NCBI GenBank assembly: GCA_965215185.1
Contig: OZ244034.1
Span: 1,408,001-1,472,000, forward strand
DNA: 64,000 nt
Reading direction: 5' to 3'
Source: Acidimicrobiia bacterium
GTDB lineage: Bacteria; Actinomycetota; Acidimicrobiia; Spongiisociales; ZC4RG35
This document shows, one piece after another, positions 13,004-20,245 of this stretch (position 1 is its first letter; each line of letters begins with the position of its first letter). The notes under the pieces are model-generated. The model ran no database searches. It was not told the DNA's origin and saw nothing but the letters and a program-made list of their open reading frames with translations. A program made the position numbers and the translations under genes.

Positions 13004-13554
13004 TCAAGTCTCTTTGAGCATCTCGGCGTAACAAGCGGACCGCTCGGTCGGTGTCCATAGCGAGCAGTCGGCACACTTGGCGCCGTTGCTGACCTCGGTC
13101 TGGTAATAGAGGCAGCAGGCCTTGCGCCCCCACACCCATCGCAGATCCTCGCCGATCCGGACGACCCGACCCGACCGGCGTAGACCGCCGCGCGCGGTGG
13201 CGAAGAAACCCTCGACAAGGCGGCTGATCCGTTCGGCATCGTCTGAGAGCGGCCCAACGAAGGCGCCGAAGGATGCGGCACACGACGACCCGACATTTCC
13301 CCACAGCAACGCCTCACCGATGAGCATCGACCGGTGAACGGCATCGACGAACGAAGCCAGGTGCTCATCGATCAGCACACGATGGAGCACGGCCAAGTCA
13401 CCGTCGGCCTCCACCAACTCCGCGCTGTCCAGTCGGACGGCGTTGAGGCGATGCTGGTCCAAAGCGATCGCCGTGGTCTCCGGGCGGACCGAAAGCACAT
13501 CGCCCGATAGCACAAACGACCCGATAGCAACCGAAGCGATCCGATAGACGTACC
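13004..13554 (-). pseudogene. FhuF-like (2Fe-2S) ferric reductase, 3' part separated by insertion
   Basis: LLWGNV and C-terminal RKACCLYYQ...CADC motif; joins in frame to 15286-15493. Confidence 0.85.
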
Positions 13555-13627
13555 GTTCCTTTTTGGATAGATGATTGTTCCTATCCCGGCGTCCCGAACG
13601 ATCTTGAACGCCTGTGCAACTCACTAA

Positions 13628-15202
13628 TCAGGGTTCCGTCCCGACGGTCGTAACACCCACAGAATGTGAGCGCTCGCGCCGGTCGTTGTCTGATGTGTGC
13701 GCCATGCCAGTTGCATTAGCGGTCTGCTGGACAGTTGCTTTCCCGTACCGATCCTCCGGTAGGCAAGGGCTCTGACTGCTTTTGCGCTTCTCGCTATATC
13801 CCTGGCTTCTTCTGCCGATCACCACTGCGGCCGCCTGGTGGCGGTCGCCGCGTTGTCGGCGAGATCTGTCTAAAGGCTTCTTCCAGTATCTGGCTCCCCA
13901 GATACTGGTGTAGGCCGGATCCACCGCTATCACGGTCATACCGTTGCGGTAGGCCGCAGAGGCAATGGTGTGGACGAACTTGGCGGTGGGTAAACCGCAC
14001 ACCTTGCGGCGGGTGGTCTTGCCTGCCTTGCCTCTGCGTCCTCTTTGTCTGGTGCGAATGTCGGTGAAGTTGAGTTTCTCGATAGCTATTACCGTCACAC
14101 CCTGGCGTTGTGCCCACTTGACGAGTTGGCTCACCGTTTCCCTAAGCGCACCGAGACGGTGCGCCGAAGAACCCCTCTCAGGGATGTTCTTTCTGATAGG
14201 CCTGCCTACCGGGTTACCGTGAACATCCAAAATCCGTGCGTCCACATGTCCCGAGTTGAGATCTATCGCCAGACACCTGCCTAACTTAGCGGCCTCTTTG
14301 ACTCCGCGTTTCTCCTTGGGTGGCTGAGACCACGACGCGGTGATGTACCAGCGCTCTCTATCCGCATCAAAGCGGATGGAGTATCCGACCGCCCGGTCTG
14401 CGCTGGCCTGCGCTTCCCACTCGCCAGCGAGGTGATGCCACTGCACCGGATTGGAAAGCCAGTAGGTAGGTGTCCTGCCCGGCGTGTTGGACAGATAAGC
14501 AAGGGGCGAAGGTAGGCGGATAGTCACGGTGTATTCATCGTTGCCGTGAGGGGCCACCCTGATGGTCTCGTTACCGAACGCCTTACCCGCCTCGCCGTCT
14601 GCGGAGATGAACATCCGCTTGGTGTCCCAGTGGTAGCGCCACTCCTCCAAGGTGAGTCCTGCTTCTTTCAGGTTGTGGCGATTGAAAGCCAGGCGGTTGC
14701 CGCCCAAGACTATGGAGAGACGGCCCTCCGCCAGGCGCTGTTCGGTGTCGGACAACCTGGCAGCGAGCTTCTGGCGGCGGCGCTGCTTCTGGTAACGCTC
14801 GGAACGAGTCGCGTATCCTCGCTTCTTCTTCTTTCCCTTGCCGACCGGCAAAGCGAGGCGGCGATCCAACTCGGCCAACTCCTTACGATCCCGATACTCC
14901 AAGTCTTCCAGGTTGAGTAGTTCTCTTTCCCACATGTCATCGGTAGTGCGGGTAATGGCACCCGCCCAGCGGGAAGAACAATGTGGAGTCAGGGAGCGTT
15001 TGCGATTGGCGCGCCCCAGGTGCTTGTCACCCGCTCCGAGGCGACACCGGGTTGCCAGGTCGGAACGCAACAGACCACCCAGGTGGTCACCTATCTCTCG
15101 CAACACTGTCTCGTCGGAGTCCGATGGGAACAGACGAGTTCTGGCGCTCACCGCCCGCGGGGGCCCTACCACAAAAGGATCGATCAGAGCACGCCTGGTC
15201 AC
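13628..15202 (-). CDS. tnpB: TnpB-related RuvC nuclease, 524 aa, without Zn-ribbon
   Basis: RuvC-I LAIDLN, RuvC-II IAIEKLNF, VDPAYTS, RuvC-III DRHQAAA; N-terminal SSRWAGAITR typical of actinobacterial large TnpB-like proteins. Confidence 0.88.
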   Translation of the reverse strand: MTRRALIDPFVVGPPRAVSARTRLFPSDSDETVLREIGDHLGGLLRSDLATRCRLGAGDKHLGRANRKRSLTPHCSSRWAGAITRTTDDMWERELLNLEDLEYRDRKELAELDRRLALPVGKGKKKKRGYATRSERYQKQRRRQKLAARLSDTEQRLAEGRLSIVLGGNRLAFNRHNLKEAGLTLEEWRYHWDTKRMFISADGEAGKAFGNETIRVAPHGNDEYTVTIRLPSPLAYLSNTPGRTPTYWLSNPVQWHHLAGEWEAQASADRAVGYSIRFDADRERWYITASWSQPPKEKRGVKEAAKLGRCLAIDLNSGHVDARILDVHGNPVGRPIRKNIPERGSSAHRLGALRETVSQLVKWAQRQGVTVIAIEKLNFTDIRTRQRGRRGKAGKTTRRKVCGLPTAKFVHTIASAAYRNGMTVIAVDPAYTSIWGARYWKKPLDRSRRQRGDRHQAAAVVIGRRSQGYSEKRKSSQSPCLPEDRYGKATVQQTANATGMAHTSDNDRRERSHSVGVTTVGTEP

Positions 15203-15255
15203 AACGACACTCGCATCATGGTCTGCTGCAAAAAGGTTCCGCAGCCATCAACAAC

Positions 15256-15283
15256 AGTCTACTGAAACGGGAACAGTTGGCAA
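15256..15283 (-). promoter_or_regulatory. putative element-borne promoter TTGCCA-N16-TAGACT
   Basis: -35 starts at the first bases of the element end and points into tnpB. Confidence 0.55.
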
Positions 15284-15285
15284 CC

Positions 15286-15493
15286 CCTGGACAAAAAGCG
15301 ACATTGCCACCATGTCGTCGTCGGTGCCCCAGCCTGCGGCAGTTGACCGCCCGACTTCCAGCAGCCGCGGCGGGTGGGCGACCAGATCGTCGCAAGGCAA
15401 CCACTGCAGACCTTCGCTTGCGTCCACCGTGATCTGCAGGTAATCGATGGTCGACAACAGCTCTTCCACGACCTTCCGCCCCCGGTCTTCCAT
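15286..15493 (-). pseudogene. FhuF-like gene, 5' part
   Basis: MEDRGRK...MVAMSLFVQG with GAAGGAG RBS; continues in frame at 13554 (rebuilt protein 252 aa). Confidence 0.8.
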
Positions 15494-15639: not shown

Positions 15640-17085
15640 ATGCGGATTGCCTGTCTGCTCGTCTCTCATCTGAGAGCCAAGTCTGAGATGCGCCGCGACG
15701 CGCATCTGAAAAACCAACCGGCAGTGATCATCGATCAGACCGGACCCATCCCCCGGGTGGTAGATCACACTCCCCAAGCCTTTCAGGTGAACGCTGGAAT
15801 GCCATTGGAGCAGGCCATATCCCGCCATGAGAACACCCTCGTCCTAGAGGCGGACGAGCCCTATTACCAGAAAGTGTTTGACGATGTGCTCAAGTCCCTG
15901 GCGGACGTGAGCCAACGTGTGGAGGGTCTGGAACTTGGCACGGCTTATGTGCGCCTTGACGGTTCGAGAGCTCTGTACGGCGGCGAGGACCGTTTGGTGT
16001 ACACCCTCTTGGGAGTCATCCCTCACGATTTGGAACCGGCGGTGGGAGTGGGTGACGCCAAATTCCCCGCCTTCGTAGCAGCGCGGACCGGAAAGGCGCT
16101 GGAAGTGACCTGGGTCCCTTCCAATACCACTCGCTTCCTCTCCTCCCATTCCATCGACCTTCTTCCCCTCTCGGCGGAGATCAAAACAAGCCTGCGCCTG
16201 TTTGGCCTGCACACCATGGGAGAAGTCGCCAAGCTGCCCAAAGGGCTCCTCACCGATCAGTTCGGCTGGGAAGGATGGCAAGCGTGGTCTCTCTGCAACG
16301 GAGTAGACGAGCGTCCCCTGATTCCCATGGAAGCGACAGCGACCATCGTCGAACATACCTCTTTTCCTGACCATGCGGCCTCTTTGGAACTCTTTTTGGT
16401 AACAGTGGACATCCTTTTGAAGAAGGCCTTTCACCGGCCGGGCATGTTGGGAAGACAGGCAACCGGCGTGACCTTGGAATGCACTGCGGAGGGCGCCCCG
16501 TCATGGAAACAGTCGTTCCATTTCAAGCGGGGTATCCACAGGTGGGAGGAAGCCTTTTCGATCATCAGAAACCAACTGAAGATGAACCCTCCCCGGATCC
16601 CCATCGAAGAGATCCGATTGACCCTGACCAATCTCAGCGGAGCGTCAGGCGTGCAGTTGGGGCTCTGGGCGGATCCCAAGAAAATCAAGTGGCGACGGAT
16701 CAGGGAAGTGGAGAAACAACTTCAGGCCCGAATGCGAGGAGACCACATCCTGCACCGGGTGGTACAGGTGGCTCCCTGGCATCCGGCGCCGGAGATGCGG
16801 GCCTTCCAGGTTCCGATTGATCGATCGGGAAGTTACCCCATCAAACCCGTCGTGACGCCCACCCGGGTACCCGTCCAGGAAGGCGCTCATCACCAACCGA
16901 CGGCCGTGCTATTGGGAGACCGATGGCATCAAGTGAACCGAGTGGCCGATCTTTGGACGTTCGACCTGTGGTGGTTGCCGAAACCGATCACCCGCACCTA
17001 TTACCGGCTGAGCGGAGATGACGGGCGGCAGATCACCCTTTTCTATGACCAGAGAGGGAACCACTGGTACAGGCAGAGTGGATAA
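15640..17085 (+). CDS. imuB: ImuB-like Y-family polymerase homolog with C-terminal DUF6504-like domain
   Basis: GMPL.QA, G+GDAKF.A, L..FGL.T.G Y-family pattern without catalytic DE; C-terminal W...WW....R.YY; SOS box upstream, dnaE2 downstream. Confidence 0.85.
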   Translation: MRIACLLVSHLRAKSEMRRDAHLKNQPAVIIDQTGPIPRVVDHTPQAFQVNAGMPLEQAISRHENTLVLEADEPYYQKVFDDVLKSLADVSQRVEGLELGTAYVRLDGSRALYGGEDRLVYTLLGVIPHDLEPAVGVGDAKFPAFVAARTGKALEVTWVPSNTTRFLSSHSIDLLPLSAEIKTSLRLFGLHTMGEVAKLPKGLLTDQFGWEGWQAWSLCNGVDERPLIPMEATATIVEHTSFPDHAASLELFLVTVDILLKKAFHRPGMLGRQATGVTLECTAEGAPSWKQSFHFKRGIHRWEEAFSIIRNQLKMNPPRIPIEEIRLTLTNLSGASGVQLGLWADPKKIKWRRIREVEKQLQARMRGDHILHRVVQVAPWHPAPEMRAFQVPIDRSGSYPIKPVVTPTRVPVQEGAHHQPTAVLLGDRWHQVNRVADLWTFDLWWLPKPITRTYYRLSGDDGRQITLFYDQRGNHWYRQSG

Positions 17086-17098
17086 ACAGGAGGGATGT

Positions 17099-20000
17099 GT
17101 GTCTTCGAGCTATGTGGAACTTCACGCAAAAAGCTTCTACTCCTTCGGGATAGGGGCATCGCACGTCCACGAACTCCTCGCCCGAGCCAAGCAGTGCGGC
17201 TACTCAGCCATGGCTCTGACCGACACCAACCTGTGCGGCGCTTTGGAGTTCGCCCGCCTGGCCAACAGCTTGGGCATACAACCCATAACCGGCGGAGAGT
17301 TGACCCTGGAAGACGACACGCGATTGACCCTTTTGGCCCGCACCCGAAAAGGGTATGCCAATCTCTCTCGGCTGTTCACCCTGGCCAATAGCACCGACCG
17401 CCAGAACCCCCGGCTCGATCCCAAGCATCTGCCGACGTACTCGCAGGGACTGATCCTTCTCACCGGAGGGCGCCAAAGCCGCCTCTCTCAACTGACTCTG
17501 TCCGGCCGGTTTCAGCAGGCCCGGGAGCTTCTCCATGGCTATCGGGAGTGGTTCGGCTCAGACCGGGTGTATGTGGAGCTTCAACAGAACCTCTTGCAAG
17601 GTGACACCCGGCGCAACCGGGAACTGTCATCTCTGGCGCACACCATGGGCGTGCCGTTGGTGGCCACCAACGATGTCCACTACCACTCGCCGAAGCGATA
17701 CCGGCTGCAGAACGCGCTGGTGGCCGCCCAACACAACATCACCATGGACGAGGCTCTGCAATTCATCAGACCCAACCCTCACCTCTCTCTGAAGTCTCCA
17801 CAACAGATGAAGCGGCTGTTCCGCCTTTACCCCGAGGCGGTCTCCAACACTGCGACAATCGCCGATCAATGTTCTTTCGATCTCAGTACCGATCTTGGAT
17901 ACAACCTCCCCGAACCGCAAGTGCCGGAAGGGCATACTCCCGACAGCTACCTTCGCGAGCTCTGTCACCAAGCCGCTATCCGGCGCTACGGAGCCATGTC
18001 TCCACCCATCGCAGAACGCTTGGCAGAAGAGTTCCGACTGATACAAATACACCGTCTGGCCGGCTTCCTACTGCTGTATCGGCAGATCGCGCAGATCGCG
18101 CAGAAGATCATGGAAGAAGAGGGTTTGGTGCGTCCTGGCACGCCGCTGGAAAAGCAGCCGCCGGGAAGAGGGCGAGGCTCATCGGTGGCCCTTTTGGTGG
18201 GATATCTGATCGGCATCAGTCATGTTGATCCTCTGAAGTGGAACCTCACTCTGGAACGGTTCATCTCAGAGGACACGAGCCTGCTTCCCGACATCGACCT
18301 CGACTTTCCCCGCCATCTCAGAGACAAGCTCATCGAGCGGATCCATCAGCACTTCGGCGCCGAATACGCAGTACTCACCGGCGCCATCTCCACCTACACG
18401 GTGAAAGGGATCATTCAGGATCTGGGCAAAGCGTTCGGACTGCCCAACCAGGACCTGAGACTTCTATCCAAACAGATCCACTCCCATGACGCGGCGGACC
18501 TCAAAGGAGAGATGTTGGAACTGCCCGCTTTCCGGGACCGGGTGGACGCTTACGGGTGGAAGAACCTGATCGAGATTGCCCCCCAACTGATGGGGGCGCC
18601 CAAACACCTCAGCCAACACGTGGGAGGCATGATTCTCAGCAGCACCCCCATACCGGAGATGGTTCCCATTCGAAAAGGCGCCATCGAAGGGCGTTTCATC
18701 ATGGATTGGAACAAGGACAATGTCGCCGACGCCAACTTCGCCAAGATCGACCTCCTCTCTCTGCCGGCGCTCGACCAACTTCACGAGGCTTTCGATCTGA
18801 TCGAGGAAAGGGAGGGCACAAGACCCGATCTGAGCCGCCTCGACCCCGAAGATCCCCAGGTTTACGGGATGATCACCGAAGGCCGATCCAAAGGGGTCTT
18901 TTTGCTCCAGTCGCCCGCCCAGTTGAAGATGGGACGCCGCCTTCGGCCCAAGAACCTCCTCGATCTTGCCTATCAGGTGGCGCTGATTCGTCCGGGGGTC
19001 GGCGTGCAGGGAAGCGCGGTCTCGCTGTTCGTGGACAGATACCGCCACGGCGCATCCTGGGAGTATGACCATCCCTTGGAAAAACGGGCTCTGGAGCGTG
19101 GATGTGGGGTCATCGTATGGCAGGAGCAAGTGGTCCAGCTCATCATGGATGTGGCGGGAATGACCGCCGCTCAGGCCGATGAGATACGAAGATCCTTCGC
19201 TCGCTCCAACAACCAGCACCTGATCGCCATGCACTGGAAAGAATTCCTGAAAGGCGCCCAGCGCCAGGGTGTTTCCAAGCAAACCGCGCGGAAGATCTTT
19301 TCCAAGATCAACGGTCACTACATGTTCCCAGAATCCCACTCGCATGCCTTTGCCATCACTGCCTACCAGGTGGCTTGGCTCAAGCGCTACCACCCTTTGG
19401 AATTCTTCACGACTCTCATCAACAACCAGCCCATGGGCTTCTACCCGCTGGAAACCCTCAAACAAGACGCCAAAAGCTTCGGCGTGCCGTTTCTGCATCC
19501 ATGCATCAACCGAAGCGGCGTCAAATGCGTTCCCGAAGACGGCGCTGTGCGGCTAGGTCTGGGCATCGTCAAAGATGTGGGAAACCGGTCCGCAGAAGCA
19601 ATCGTTGAAGAGCGCGAACGCAACGGTCCCTATTCGGGCGCTGGAGACCTGGTACAACGCACCGGCCTGAAACCTCAGGCCGTGATCTCTTTGGTGATGG
19701 CGGGAGCTGTAGACGGTATGGTGCCCAACCGCCGGGCCGCTATCTGGGACGCGGGGCTTTCTATCCGCCCCTCTCGCAACGGACAGAGGGTCATGGACAC
19801 GACCAGAGGAATCAAAAAACCCGATCTAGCCGATTTCACCGACTACCAGAAAATGGCGAGCGCTTATGAGGTGATGGCCATCTTTCCGGGAGGCCACCTC
19901 ATGGAATATCTGCGGGAAAGCCTCGGCTCAGACGTGCTGACCACCGCCGAGGTGGAGAACTGCGCCGAAGAGGAAGATGTCCTGGTGGCGGGCTGGCCCA

Positions 20001-20245
20001 TCGCCCGACAACACCCCCGCGGAATAGACGGCACGGTGTTCGTGACCATTGAGGACGAGACCGCAGACGTGCAACTGATCATCTGGCCGGATGTCTTCAC
20101 TCGTTACAAAAAGCAACTCAAGAGCCAGGTGATCCTGGCGCGGGGTGTGATCTCCCGATGGGACGGCACCACCTCCATCATCGTTTCATCTTTGGAAGCA
20201 GTCGACATCCCAGTGTCGATGCCCGCCGCCCACGACTGGCGTTAG
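17099..20245 (+). CDS. dnaE2: error-prone DNA polymerase III alpha (DnaE2/ImuC)
   Basis: YVELHAKS PHP start, GRGSS, PDIDLD, SQHVGG, FPESH, C-terminal AHDW (SRDF-like) tail. Confidence 0.93.
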   Translation: MSSSYVELHAKSFYSFGIGASHVHELLARAKQCGYSAMALTDTNLCGALEFARLANSLGIQPITGGELTLEDDTRLTLLARTRKGYANLSRLFTLANSTDRQNPRLDPKHLPTYSQGLILLTGGRQSRLSQLTLSGRFQQARELLHGYREWFGSDRVYVELQQNLLQGDTRRNRELSSLAHTMGVPLVATNDVHYHSPKRYRLQNALVAAQHNITMDEALQFIRPNPHLSLKSPQQMKRLFRLYPEAVSNTATIADQCSFDLSTDLGYNLPEPQVPEGHTPDSYLRELCHQAAIRRYGAMSPPIAERLAEEFRLIQIHRLAGFLLLYRQIAQIAQKIMEEEGLVRPGTPLEKQPPGRGRGSSVALLVGYLIGISHVDPLKWNLTLERFISEDTSLLPDIDLDFPRHLRDKLIERIHQHFGAEYAVLTGAISTYTVKGIIQDLGKAFGLPNQDLRLLSKQIHSHDAADLKGEMLELPAFRDRVDAYGWKNLIEIAPQLMGAPKHLSQHVGGMILSSTPIPEMVPIRKGAIEGRFIMDWNKDNVADANFAKIDLLSLPALDQLHEAFDLIEEREGTRPDLSRLDPEDPQVYGMITEGRSKGVFLLQSPAQLKMGRRLRPKNLLDLAYQVALIRPGVGVQGSAVSLFVDRYRHGASWEYDHPLEKRALERGCGVIVWQEQVVQLIMDVAGMTAAQADEIRRSFARSNNQHLIAMHWKEFLKGAQRQGVSKQTARKIFSKINGHYMFPESHSHAFAITAYQVAWLKRYHPLEFFTTLINNQPMGFYPLETLKQDAKSFGVPFLHPCINRSGVKCVPEDGAVRLGLGIVKDVGNRSAEAIVEERERNGPYSGAGDLVQRTGLKPQAVISLVMAGAVDGMVPNRRAAIWDAGLSIRPSRNGQRVMDTTRGIKKPDLADFTDYQKMASAYEVMAIFPGGHLMEYLRESLGSDVLTTAEVENCAEEEDVLVAGWPIARQHPRGIDGTVFVTIEDETADVQLIIWPDVFTRYKKQLKSQVILARGVISRWDGTTSIIVSSLEAVDIPVSMPAAHDWR

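Follow-up and report, generated by a model that had tools for sequence, protein, structure and literature searches.

The interrupted locus

The stretch of DNA analysed here, called the window below, comprises 64,000 nucleotides of an uncultured Acidimicrobiia bacterium (assembly GCA_965215185.1, contig OZ244034.1, positions 1,408,001 to 1,472,000), whose genome is a single contig of 3.12 Mb. On the minus strand of the window lies a 1731-bp element (13552/5-15282/5) that interrupts a fhuF-like gene and carries one gene, coding for a TnpB-like protein, between ends of the IS607 type. Three open reading frames (ORFs) are relevant: one of 81 amino acids (aa; 15248-15493), which ends just within the element, the TnpB-like ORF of 524 aa (13628-15202) and one of 206 aa (13004-13624). 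The minus-strand junctions read TTTGTCCAGGGG|TTGCCAAC on the left and AAGGAACGG|TACGTC on the right, the host sequence 3' of the element being TACGTCTATCGG; the point of exchange can be resolved only to within the shared GGT.

Removal of the 1731 bp joins the 5' part of the fhuF-like gene, 70 codons long (15284..15493, minus strand), to its 3' part (13004..13552, minus strand), which consists of one straddling Tyr codon, 181 codons and the stop; both limits follow from the comparison of the junctions with orthologues. The resulting protein has 252 aa, reads FVQGYVYR across the former insertion and ends with the Cys-rich FhuF_C motif. Both host parts match FhuF models (Pfam FhuF 25.7 bits, FhuF_C 22.7 bits); TIGR03951 gives 37.8 bits, under its cut-off of 63.85. 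This scarless reconstruction, put forward in an initial annotation that had access to the letters of the window alone, was borne out by relatives that possess the uninterrupted allele, as the same annotation had anticipated. With the 3' part alone as query, 11 of the 17 genomes of the genus matched, and the junction was compared in the 8 loci with long matches (L019-L026). In all of them the 5' and 3' parts are contiguous and in frame, with only the straddling codon between them; seven read LF[V/A]QGY[A/V][F/Y]R across the insertion point, while the eighth, 42% identical, has QAY instead of QGY. One example of the empty-site DNA is GTCCAGGGG^TATGCC. Thus, the 1731-bp deletion reproduces a natural empty site, and comparison of the window junctions with the eight orthologous loci revealed no target duplication. 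From a biological point of view the case is an ordinary one, in which a mobile element has knocked out the gene of a siderophore-iron reductase.

Element ends, copies and transposase partner

Eight left and eight right ends of close copies were compared, and the boundaries proposed for the window element recur in every one of them. GG is found at the junction in 8/8 left and 8/8 right ends; in the window the left GG core (15285-15284) belongs to AGGGG (15288-15284, minus strand), the last five bases of the fhuF 5' part, which the consensus of the eight left junctions marks as the target and as a motif resembling a transposon-adjacent motif (TAM). All left ends begin GGTTG[C/A][C/T]AACTGTT. All right ends finish AAAAGGAACGG, the next base being T in seven and C in one, after which unrelated flank follows. 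No terminal inverted repeat links the two ends, the sole pair touching the right terminus being 76% complementary and lying 100 nt inside the left end. The left end of the window copy (15203..15283, minus strand), which amounts to 83 bp before the 524-aa ORF, starts TTGCCAACTGTT and contains two AAC/GAC-TGTT repeats and a short remnant of the tnpA deletion. It also holds the hexamers TTGCCA (15283-15278) and TAGACT (15261-15256), 16 nucleotides apart, described from the beginning as a promoter; the pair is the sole promoter-like match in the region and is kept in 8/8 left ends, although as a single consensus match scoring 9/12, with 0.5 +/- 0.7 expected, it is not above chance by count alone.

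A second copy in the same genome (copy 2; G000:C1:2413785-2416071) aligns with the window copy at 85% identity and without gaps from the start of tnpB up to the right terminus. A protein of 203 aa, encoded between the left end of copy 2 and its tnpB, matches Pfam Resolvase (2.4e-15, residues 68-198) and the NCBIfam model NF033518, 'IS607 family transposase', with 164.6 bits against a cut-off of 110. This gene, the only tnpA in the genome, provides the autonomous serine-recombinase partner that had been expected for the window element, in which about 30 nt replace tnpA. The window copy is, judging from its sequence, a non-autonomous IS607-family derivative that apparently lost tnpA by internal deletion. 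A sister genome, G011, contains two intact and two broken copies plus fragments, and one of its intact copies (L010) shows the same tnpA-less join between left end and tnpB as the window copy, at a different site. The presence of the same deletion at different sites in two species indicates that the deleted form moved after the deletion, which needs a transposase acting in trans. Mobilisation of the window element in trans, proposed in the initial annotation, appears in this way well supported by the transposase of copy 2 and by the tnpA-less copy elsewhere.

Among distant loci having at least 750 nt of upstream sequence, tnpA is found directly upstream of the TnpB-like gene and on the same strand in 33/63. 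At L064, L100, L101, L110, L113, L088, L090 and others it ends 400-1000 nt before tnpB and does not abut it, so that these elements may carry extra sequence in between.

Decayed fragments of the element were also observed in the genome of the window (G000:C1:1650870-1651102, 2082703-2082833, 505872-505982 and 1643552-1643636). In two of them nothing but the final ~135 nt of the right end is left, bounded as in the other copies by AAAAGGAACGG; these fragments could be remnants or stand-alone guide-RNA units.

The organisation described above is that of the IS607 family (IS607, IS1535, Clostridium IStron), which shares with the window family the NF033518 serine transposase found in copy 2, the tnpA-tnpB order, GG at both ends and in the target, the lack of duplication and of inverted repeats, the preference for (G)GG targets described for IS607 (PMC6188088) and a right end ...CGG opposite a target ...GGG. 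In IS607, IS1535 and IStron, TnpA alone is described to transpose via a circular double-stranded intermediate (bioRxiv 10.1101/2023.11.20.567912, PMC6188088). The window copy differs from these elements in lacking tnpA, and it contains no group I intron.

The TnpB-like protein

The TnpB-like ORF (13628..15202, minus strand) starts with GTG and codes for 524 aa; the protein lacks a zinc finger and has D314 in RuvC-I, E375 in RuvC-II and, in the RuvC-III position, H455. These three residues do not vary among 39 aligned sequences sharing 30-85% identity with the query, and D428 of the VDPAYTS strand hardly does, whereas D453, beside H455, is not conserved. Thus, of the three acidic RuvC motifs (D, E, D) first attributed to the protein two stand, and the third is a histidine. 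The absence of a CxxC ribbon, noted at the same time, was confirmed between RuvC-II and RuvC-III both in the window protein and in further relatives, which were collected from 86 loci, 73 of them with both flanking motifs scorable: CxxC occurs in 0/73, His occupies the RuvC-III position in 73/73, and the linker replacing the zinc finger has 20-23 residues in 71/73.

The consensus of six canonical TnpBs of the genus ends ...DRDVNAAxNIRAR, while the window protein reads DRHQAAAVVIGRR; H455 was aligned by eye to the second, catalytic Asp of the canonical motif. In hhalign comparisons with canonical TnpBs only the portion from RuvC-II to the YTS strand was aligned (probability 84.5%), and H455 was not placed. 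The curated TnpB models NF040570 and TIGR01766 match residues 353-433 only, and Pfam Cas12f1-like_TNB reaches 16.2 bits, below its 26.3; at profile level Cas12f is matched weakly and collinearly through RuvC-I, RuvC-II and the YTS strand. The AlphaFold2 model (pLDDT 83.9, pTM 0.73) is of low confidence only at residues 379-398 and 477-524. Its best Foldseek matches in the PDB are full-length Cas12f structures (E 6e-8 to 3e-6; TM 0.44/0.53 for 8dzj), followed by Cas12g, Cas12m, Cas12k and bacterial RuvC. The predicted structure has a Cas12f/TnpB-like fold with a WED-REC-RuvC architecture. Between the two genome copies the ratio of nonsynonymous to synonymous substitution rates (dN/dS) is 0.14, with dS 0.67 over codons 1-458; by this measure the TnpB-like protein is under purifying selection.

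A TnpB clade defined by the Asp-to-His change in RuvC-III and by the loss of the C4 zinc finger, RIIIr-4, has been described and predicted to be active (Altae-Tran et al. 2023, PMC10691335). Both hallmarks are found in the window protein (D-E-H, no C4 zinc finger), which is assigned as an RIIIr-4-type TnpB on these two published features and not on its position in a tree. The RIIIr-4 members highlighted in that paper are linked to a ribbon-helix-helix (RHH)/MazE-like gene and to viruses; the window element has neither, and its relatives are linked instead to a serine transposase. Nety et al. sampled RIII-r4 orthologues, and their text names an active RII-r5 orthologue and none from RIII-r4 (PMC10278001). 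Within the literature searched the clade name appears in no more than these two papers, a search on rearranged or His-type TnpBs returned nothing beyond them, and no report of DNA cleavage by clade RIIIr-4 was found in the main texts searched, in keeping with the early suggestion that the protein belongs to a poorly studied clade.

Canonical TnpBs (ISDra2 type) and Cas12f share with the window protein the overall fold, as seen by Foldseek, and the aligned RuvC-I, RuvC-II and YTS strand; canonical TnpBs also have in common with it a candidate guide RNA encoded by the 3' portion of the gene together with the right end. They differ in length (roughly 400 aa vs 524 aa), in the zinc finger, replaced here by about 20 residues, in the D-E-H site and the sub-cut-off family scores of the window protein, and in their TAMs, which are mostly AT-rich (PMC10278001), while that predicted here is G-rich. 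The TnpB of the Clostridium IStron has a canonical RuvC site, its D189A mutant being reported as inactive (bioRxiv 10.1101/2023.11.20.567912), unlike the His-type, zinc-finger-less TnpB of the window. TldR and other nuclease-dead TnpB derivatives also combine relatedness to TnpB with a non-canonical RuvC-III region; however, as described in PMC10705468 and PMC10691335, they are immobilised beside host genes and have lost catalytic residues, whereas the window family keeps D, E and H without exception, in a gene carried by a mobile element.

The C-terminal TnpB tail of relatives (e.g. P0014, P0019) lies in the same frame as the 206-aa ORF of the window, indicating that the TnpB ORF was shortened by about 25 codons in this lineage, with the nucleotides still conserved. 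The 206-aa ORF itself (13004-13624, minus strand) has a GTG start within the right end and reads ...DRSGRRDRNNHLSKKER in frame into the fhuF 3' part.

In the genome of the window (G000:C1) the canonical guided_TnpB family, which has the zinc finger and the DRDVN motif, also gives six matches above its cut-off, for example at 1844435-1845568, 2450373-2451452 and 1952783-1953958 (loci L122, L129); two unrelated TnpB lineages therefore coexist in it. Such canonical matches are present in 7/41 genomes of relatives, one unpublished genome (G050) being counted.

The right end as a candidate omega-RNA

The right end is hairpin-rich, as the initial annotation had stated, and both of the hairpins listed there are present. 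A candidate omega-RNA scaffold of ~276 nt (13553..13828, minus strand) begins 67 codons before the end of the ORF and continues for 75 nt beyond it; it was delimited by a block of high identity between the two genome copies and by RNA-library contigs, and its 5' limit is provisional. Within it, on the same strand, stem-loop 1 (13588..13612) has a 7-bp stem, GGCGTTC / GGACGCC, and an 11-nt loop, AAGATCGTTCG; stem-loop 2 (13565..13586), a subterminal hairpin, has the stem GGATAGG / TCTATCC and is followed by a predicted single-stranded 3' tail, AAAAAGGAACGG (13553..13564), which the comparison of right ends shows to include the right GG core (13554-13553). The predicted guide-template region, TACGTCTATCGGATCGCTTC (13533..13552, minus strand), is host DNA directly after the right end, its start being placed by the conservation boundary and its length of 20 nt assumed. 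This layout resembles that of tested omega-RNAs, in which the scaffold overlaps the tnpB 3' end and a subterminal hairpin lies near the guide boundary (PMC10278001).

The distant loci used for the analysis of the right end, 80 from metagenomes and six from genomes of the class, encode proteins 31-46% identical to that of the window. AGGAACGGT, with at most one mismatch, is found near the stop codon in 58 of the 65 loci having at least 150 nt after the stop, and in many distant loci it ends just 7-11 nt after it. The terminus AGGAACGG is invariant across about 50 diverged relatives and is followed by unrelated flank. For the RNA alignment 50 sequences of 137 nt were used, 6 from close copies and 44 from the 46 non-redundant distant loci, L035 (locus in reverse orientation) and L046 (poor motif) being excluded. 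In this alignment conservation drops abruptly after GGT; since it ends after ...GGAACGG(T), the guide would start at UACGUCUAUCGG, in agreement with the start originally predicted.

Stem-loop 1 shows compensatory changes in 7/7 pairs (RNAalifold); one pair occurs as GC in 15 sequences, CG in 12, AU in 8 and UA in 6. Overall, 91% of its cells are paired, and double-change cells number 102, vs 28 +/- 4 after shuffling (0/500 reach the observed value) and 12-23 in slid controls. The loop of 11 nt hardly varies (A-R-R-A-C/U-C-G-U-U-C-G). All 50 sequences are also predicted to form a second hairpin, whose sequence is unrelated from one relative to another, and at least 6 terminal nucleotides are unpaired in 48 of them. 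The TnpB frame of relatives reads through the hairpins (C-terminal ...DRSG...); in the lineage of the window the stop codon precedes the element end by 75 nt, yet the hairpins are kept in 8/8 copies. Conservation of hairpins that lie 3' of the stop points to a constraint on nucleic acid and not on protein, and, as IS607 moves as double-stranded DNA and the stem covaries, RNA is indicated.

The loop of stem-loop 1 and the tail GAACGG are complementary in 97% of cells, and the alignment of 50 sequences contains no covariation between them; they could form a pseudoknot or equally represent two copies of a transposase-binding motif, of which AACTGTT and GACTGTT in the left end would be further examples. 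Neither the terminal GAACGGT nor its inverted counterpart in the stem-loop 1 loop varies among the right ends of L039-L118 and of the window element (13553-13605), and this type of motif may be one sequence read both as transposase site and as RNA pseudoknot.

The region 13300-15500 matches no Rfam family at E up to 1. RNA-library data consist of assembled contigs from three metatranscriptome runs of one study, placed at 90% likeness and involving 6% of sampled words; they map to 13552-13828 at 95-99% identity, with one additional 41-nt piece at 13985-14025. Contigs from X3 and X5 leave the window sequence exactly at 13552, indicating other insertion sites with the same right boundary. Two variant contigs in X1 that cover the same interval (13731-13828) resemble assembly-graph bubbles. 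Four contigs end at 13828; this common stop, with the uncovered remainder of tnpB, was dropped as evidence, since diverged upstream sequence would escape placement at 90% likeness. A 54-nt terminal piece (13552-13605: stem-loop 2, tail and part of stem-loop 1) was also seen inside X1 and X3 contigs, one of them of 1224 nt, with unrelated sequence on both flanks.

Between the two genome copies the last 66 codons have a dS of 0.066, vs 0.67 elsewhere. This collapse of synonymous change was considered and discarded as proof of an RNA constraint, being weakened by the comparison with the G011 copies given below; gene conversion is sufficient for part of it.

Target motif and proposed distinction between occupied and empty sites

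Positions of the target motif were counted backward from the end of the GG core. In the eight close copies position -3 is G in 8/8 left flanks and C in 8/8 right ends; at position -4 the left flanks have G in 6 and A in 2 and the right ends A in 8/8; at position -5 A is found in 7/8 left flanks and in 8/8 right ends. Distant left ends were searched for in the 86 loci with a 12-nt left-end motif, allowing up to 3 mismatches. Of the 29 matches obtained 24 are preceded by GG, and 23 of these 24 have G at -3, the exception being a doubtful match (L117); C stands at -3 in all right ends. The predicted target and TAM motif is therefore G-rich, A-R-G-GG, and the left flanks fit the TAM of about CAGGG that had been put forward in the initial annotation.

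A similar arrangement is described for the Clostridium IS607 IStron, where TGGG serves both as target of the transposase and as TAM of TnpB, against TCGG at the right end, so that position -3 separates self from the empty donor joint (bioRxiv 10.1101/2023.11.20.567912); in the window family the extended target motif is A-R-G-GG instead of TGGG. By analogy, the G/C difference at -3 is the best indirect argument that the window TnpB would still read a TAM beside the guide.

Proposed mechanism and alternative explanations

The window element is probably a non-autonomous IS607 element, mobilised in trans, whose TnpB-like protein would be guided by an omega-RNA and would break the empty donor site. 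An internal deletion would have removed tnpA, keeping the left end, the TnpB-like gene and the right end; the element entered the fhuF-like gene by conservative exchange at the GG core. The transposase of copy 2 would move it in trans, and excision would leave the donor joint ...CAGGGGTAC... Transcription of tnpB would continue past the right end into host DNA, and its product would be trimmed to the ~276-nt scaffold and a flank-derived guide; the TnpB-like protein with this omega-RNA would then recognise the empty site after excision, with 5'-A-R-G-G-G beside the guide match, and break it, and recombination with the sister chromosome would restore the element. The occupied site would escape, since three bases before the guide it carries the C of the right end and not the G of the target. 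The role proposed for the right flank as guide is drawn by analogy with studied systems (PMC10278001, bioRxiv 10.1101/2023.11.20.567912), and both nuclease activity and RNA guidance are inferred.

Several observations weigh against this mechanism. The curated TnpB cut-offs are failed by the protein (35 vs 100 bits and 30.2 vs 32 bits), and the alignment to canonical TnpBs stops at the missing zinc finger, so that H455 is placed by motif matching by eye and by the published description. The Asp-to-His change in RuvC-III and the missing zinc finger make a loss or a change of activity possible. On the RNA side, the 276-nt scaffold folded alone is not unusually stable (z = -1.3), and the invariant loop and tail could be DNA sites for the transposase and not features of an RNA. 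Near-identity over the last ~300 nt, seen between the two genome copies, is far less marked in the comparison with the G011 copies (0.88-0.93 vs 0.80-0.88); recent gene conversion accounts for part of it. Finally, the RNA-library contigs, all of one study, carry no information on strand, ends or level.

The main rival to a nuclease is an RNA-guided protein that makes no double-strand breaks and only binds or nicks the donor joint, shielding the site, recruiting the transposase back or repressing a promoter. That the altered site and the missing zinc finger hold family-wide would suit such a role, as would the TnpB lineages with altered sites that are known to act as regulators (PMC10691335, PMC10705468) and the absence of an RIII-r4 member from the active orthologues named in the text of Nety et al. 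However, invariant D, E and H point to a catalytic site that is maintained and not decaying, as PMC10691335 also concludes for the clade; the gene resides within mobile IS607 units, with tnpA present in over half of the distant loci scored, while the described nuclease-dead derivatives are immobilised by host genes; and the difference between G and C at -3 is what a self-avoiding cutter needs. This explanation is regarded as rather unlikely. Somewhat less probable still is the proposal that the D-E-H, zinc-finger-less TnpB binds or nicks under RNA guidance, marking the GGG site after excision and working with the serine transposase, the element returning or staying with no chromosome break. 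If true, it would mean an RNA-guided step in serine-recombinase transposition, and one sequence would be read in two ways, as the loop and tail of the RNA, a possible pseudoknot, and as the DNA motifs of the transposase.

The right-end hairpins and invariant motifs might otherwise serve the transposase or transcription, the TnpB-like protein being an accessory factor with no RNA guide. IS607 transposases are described to bind multiple subterminal motifs (PMC6188088), and the terminal GAACGGT, its inverted copy in the loop and AACTGTT/GACTGTT of the left end do resemble one repeated motif, with a loop-tail complementarity that shows no covariation. Yet stem-preserving changes in 7/7 pairs are not expected from a protein that binds duplex DNA, because IS607 moves as double-stranded DNA; moreover, the layout is that of tested omega-RNAs, with the scaffold over the tnpB 3' end and a hairpin about 12 nt before the boundary (PMC10278001), and the predicted fold is that of RNA-guided Cas12f, so that this possibility is judged very improbable. 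The least credible option is a dead relic with an ORF open by chance and nothing functional: although the window copy has no tnpA, several truncated right-end remnants lie in the genome and two copies in G011 are broken, a dN/dS of 0.14 with dS 0.67 over 458 codons, the full length of both G000 copies, the occurrence of the tnpA-less form at different sites in two species and the patchy distribution (2/17 genus genomes) all speak against it.

The clade is already catalogued, and the window element is a fully specified test case of it. For an omega-RNA-guided nuclease as proposed here, the locus offers a complete parts list for testing DNA cutting by the His-type, zinc-finger-less branch of TnpB. 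The gene is intact, both ends are defined at single-base level, a scaffold that includes a covarying hairpin is predicted, as are a TAM (A-R-G-G-G) and a guide, the natural empty site exists in seven sister species, and a cognate serine transposase is encoded in the same genome. If active, a protein with a G-rich TAM and a zinc-free scaffold would widen the choice of compact editors.

Family size, distribution and neighbouring genes

In a word-indexed search 2887 of 8000 candidate proteins scored an E of at most 1e-3; in the best 120 of these matches two have a Pfam domain, and the few named ones are called hypothetical. An exhaustive search gave 2003 representative clusters, of which 278 have an E of at most 1e-30. 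Among relatives the protein is patchily distributed: with the window's own genome included it was found in 2/17 genomes of the genus (1/16 other members) and in 2/61 relatives' genomes, and it is present in 5/401 genomes sampled from the class. A protein scan of the genome collection matched only the G011 copies, and a degenerate 23-nt pattern of the right end, searched for exactly in JGI metagenome contigs, gave 0 matches. The protein also occurs in 32 plasmid records, mostly of Streptomyces and mycobacteria; among the 12 listed, five are annotated as hypothetical, three as 'transposase' and two as 'TnpB-related', and two are unannotated.

Beside the interrupted gene and divergent from it, positions 15640-20245 of the window (plus strand) encode a protein of the impB/mucB/samB family (IMS; 481 aa) and a DNA polymerase III alpha-type protein (1075 aa), which together resemble a mutagenesis polymerase cassette.

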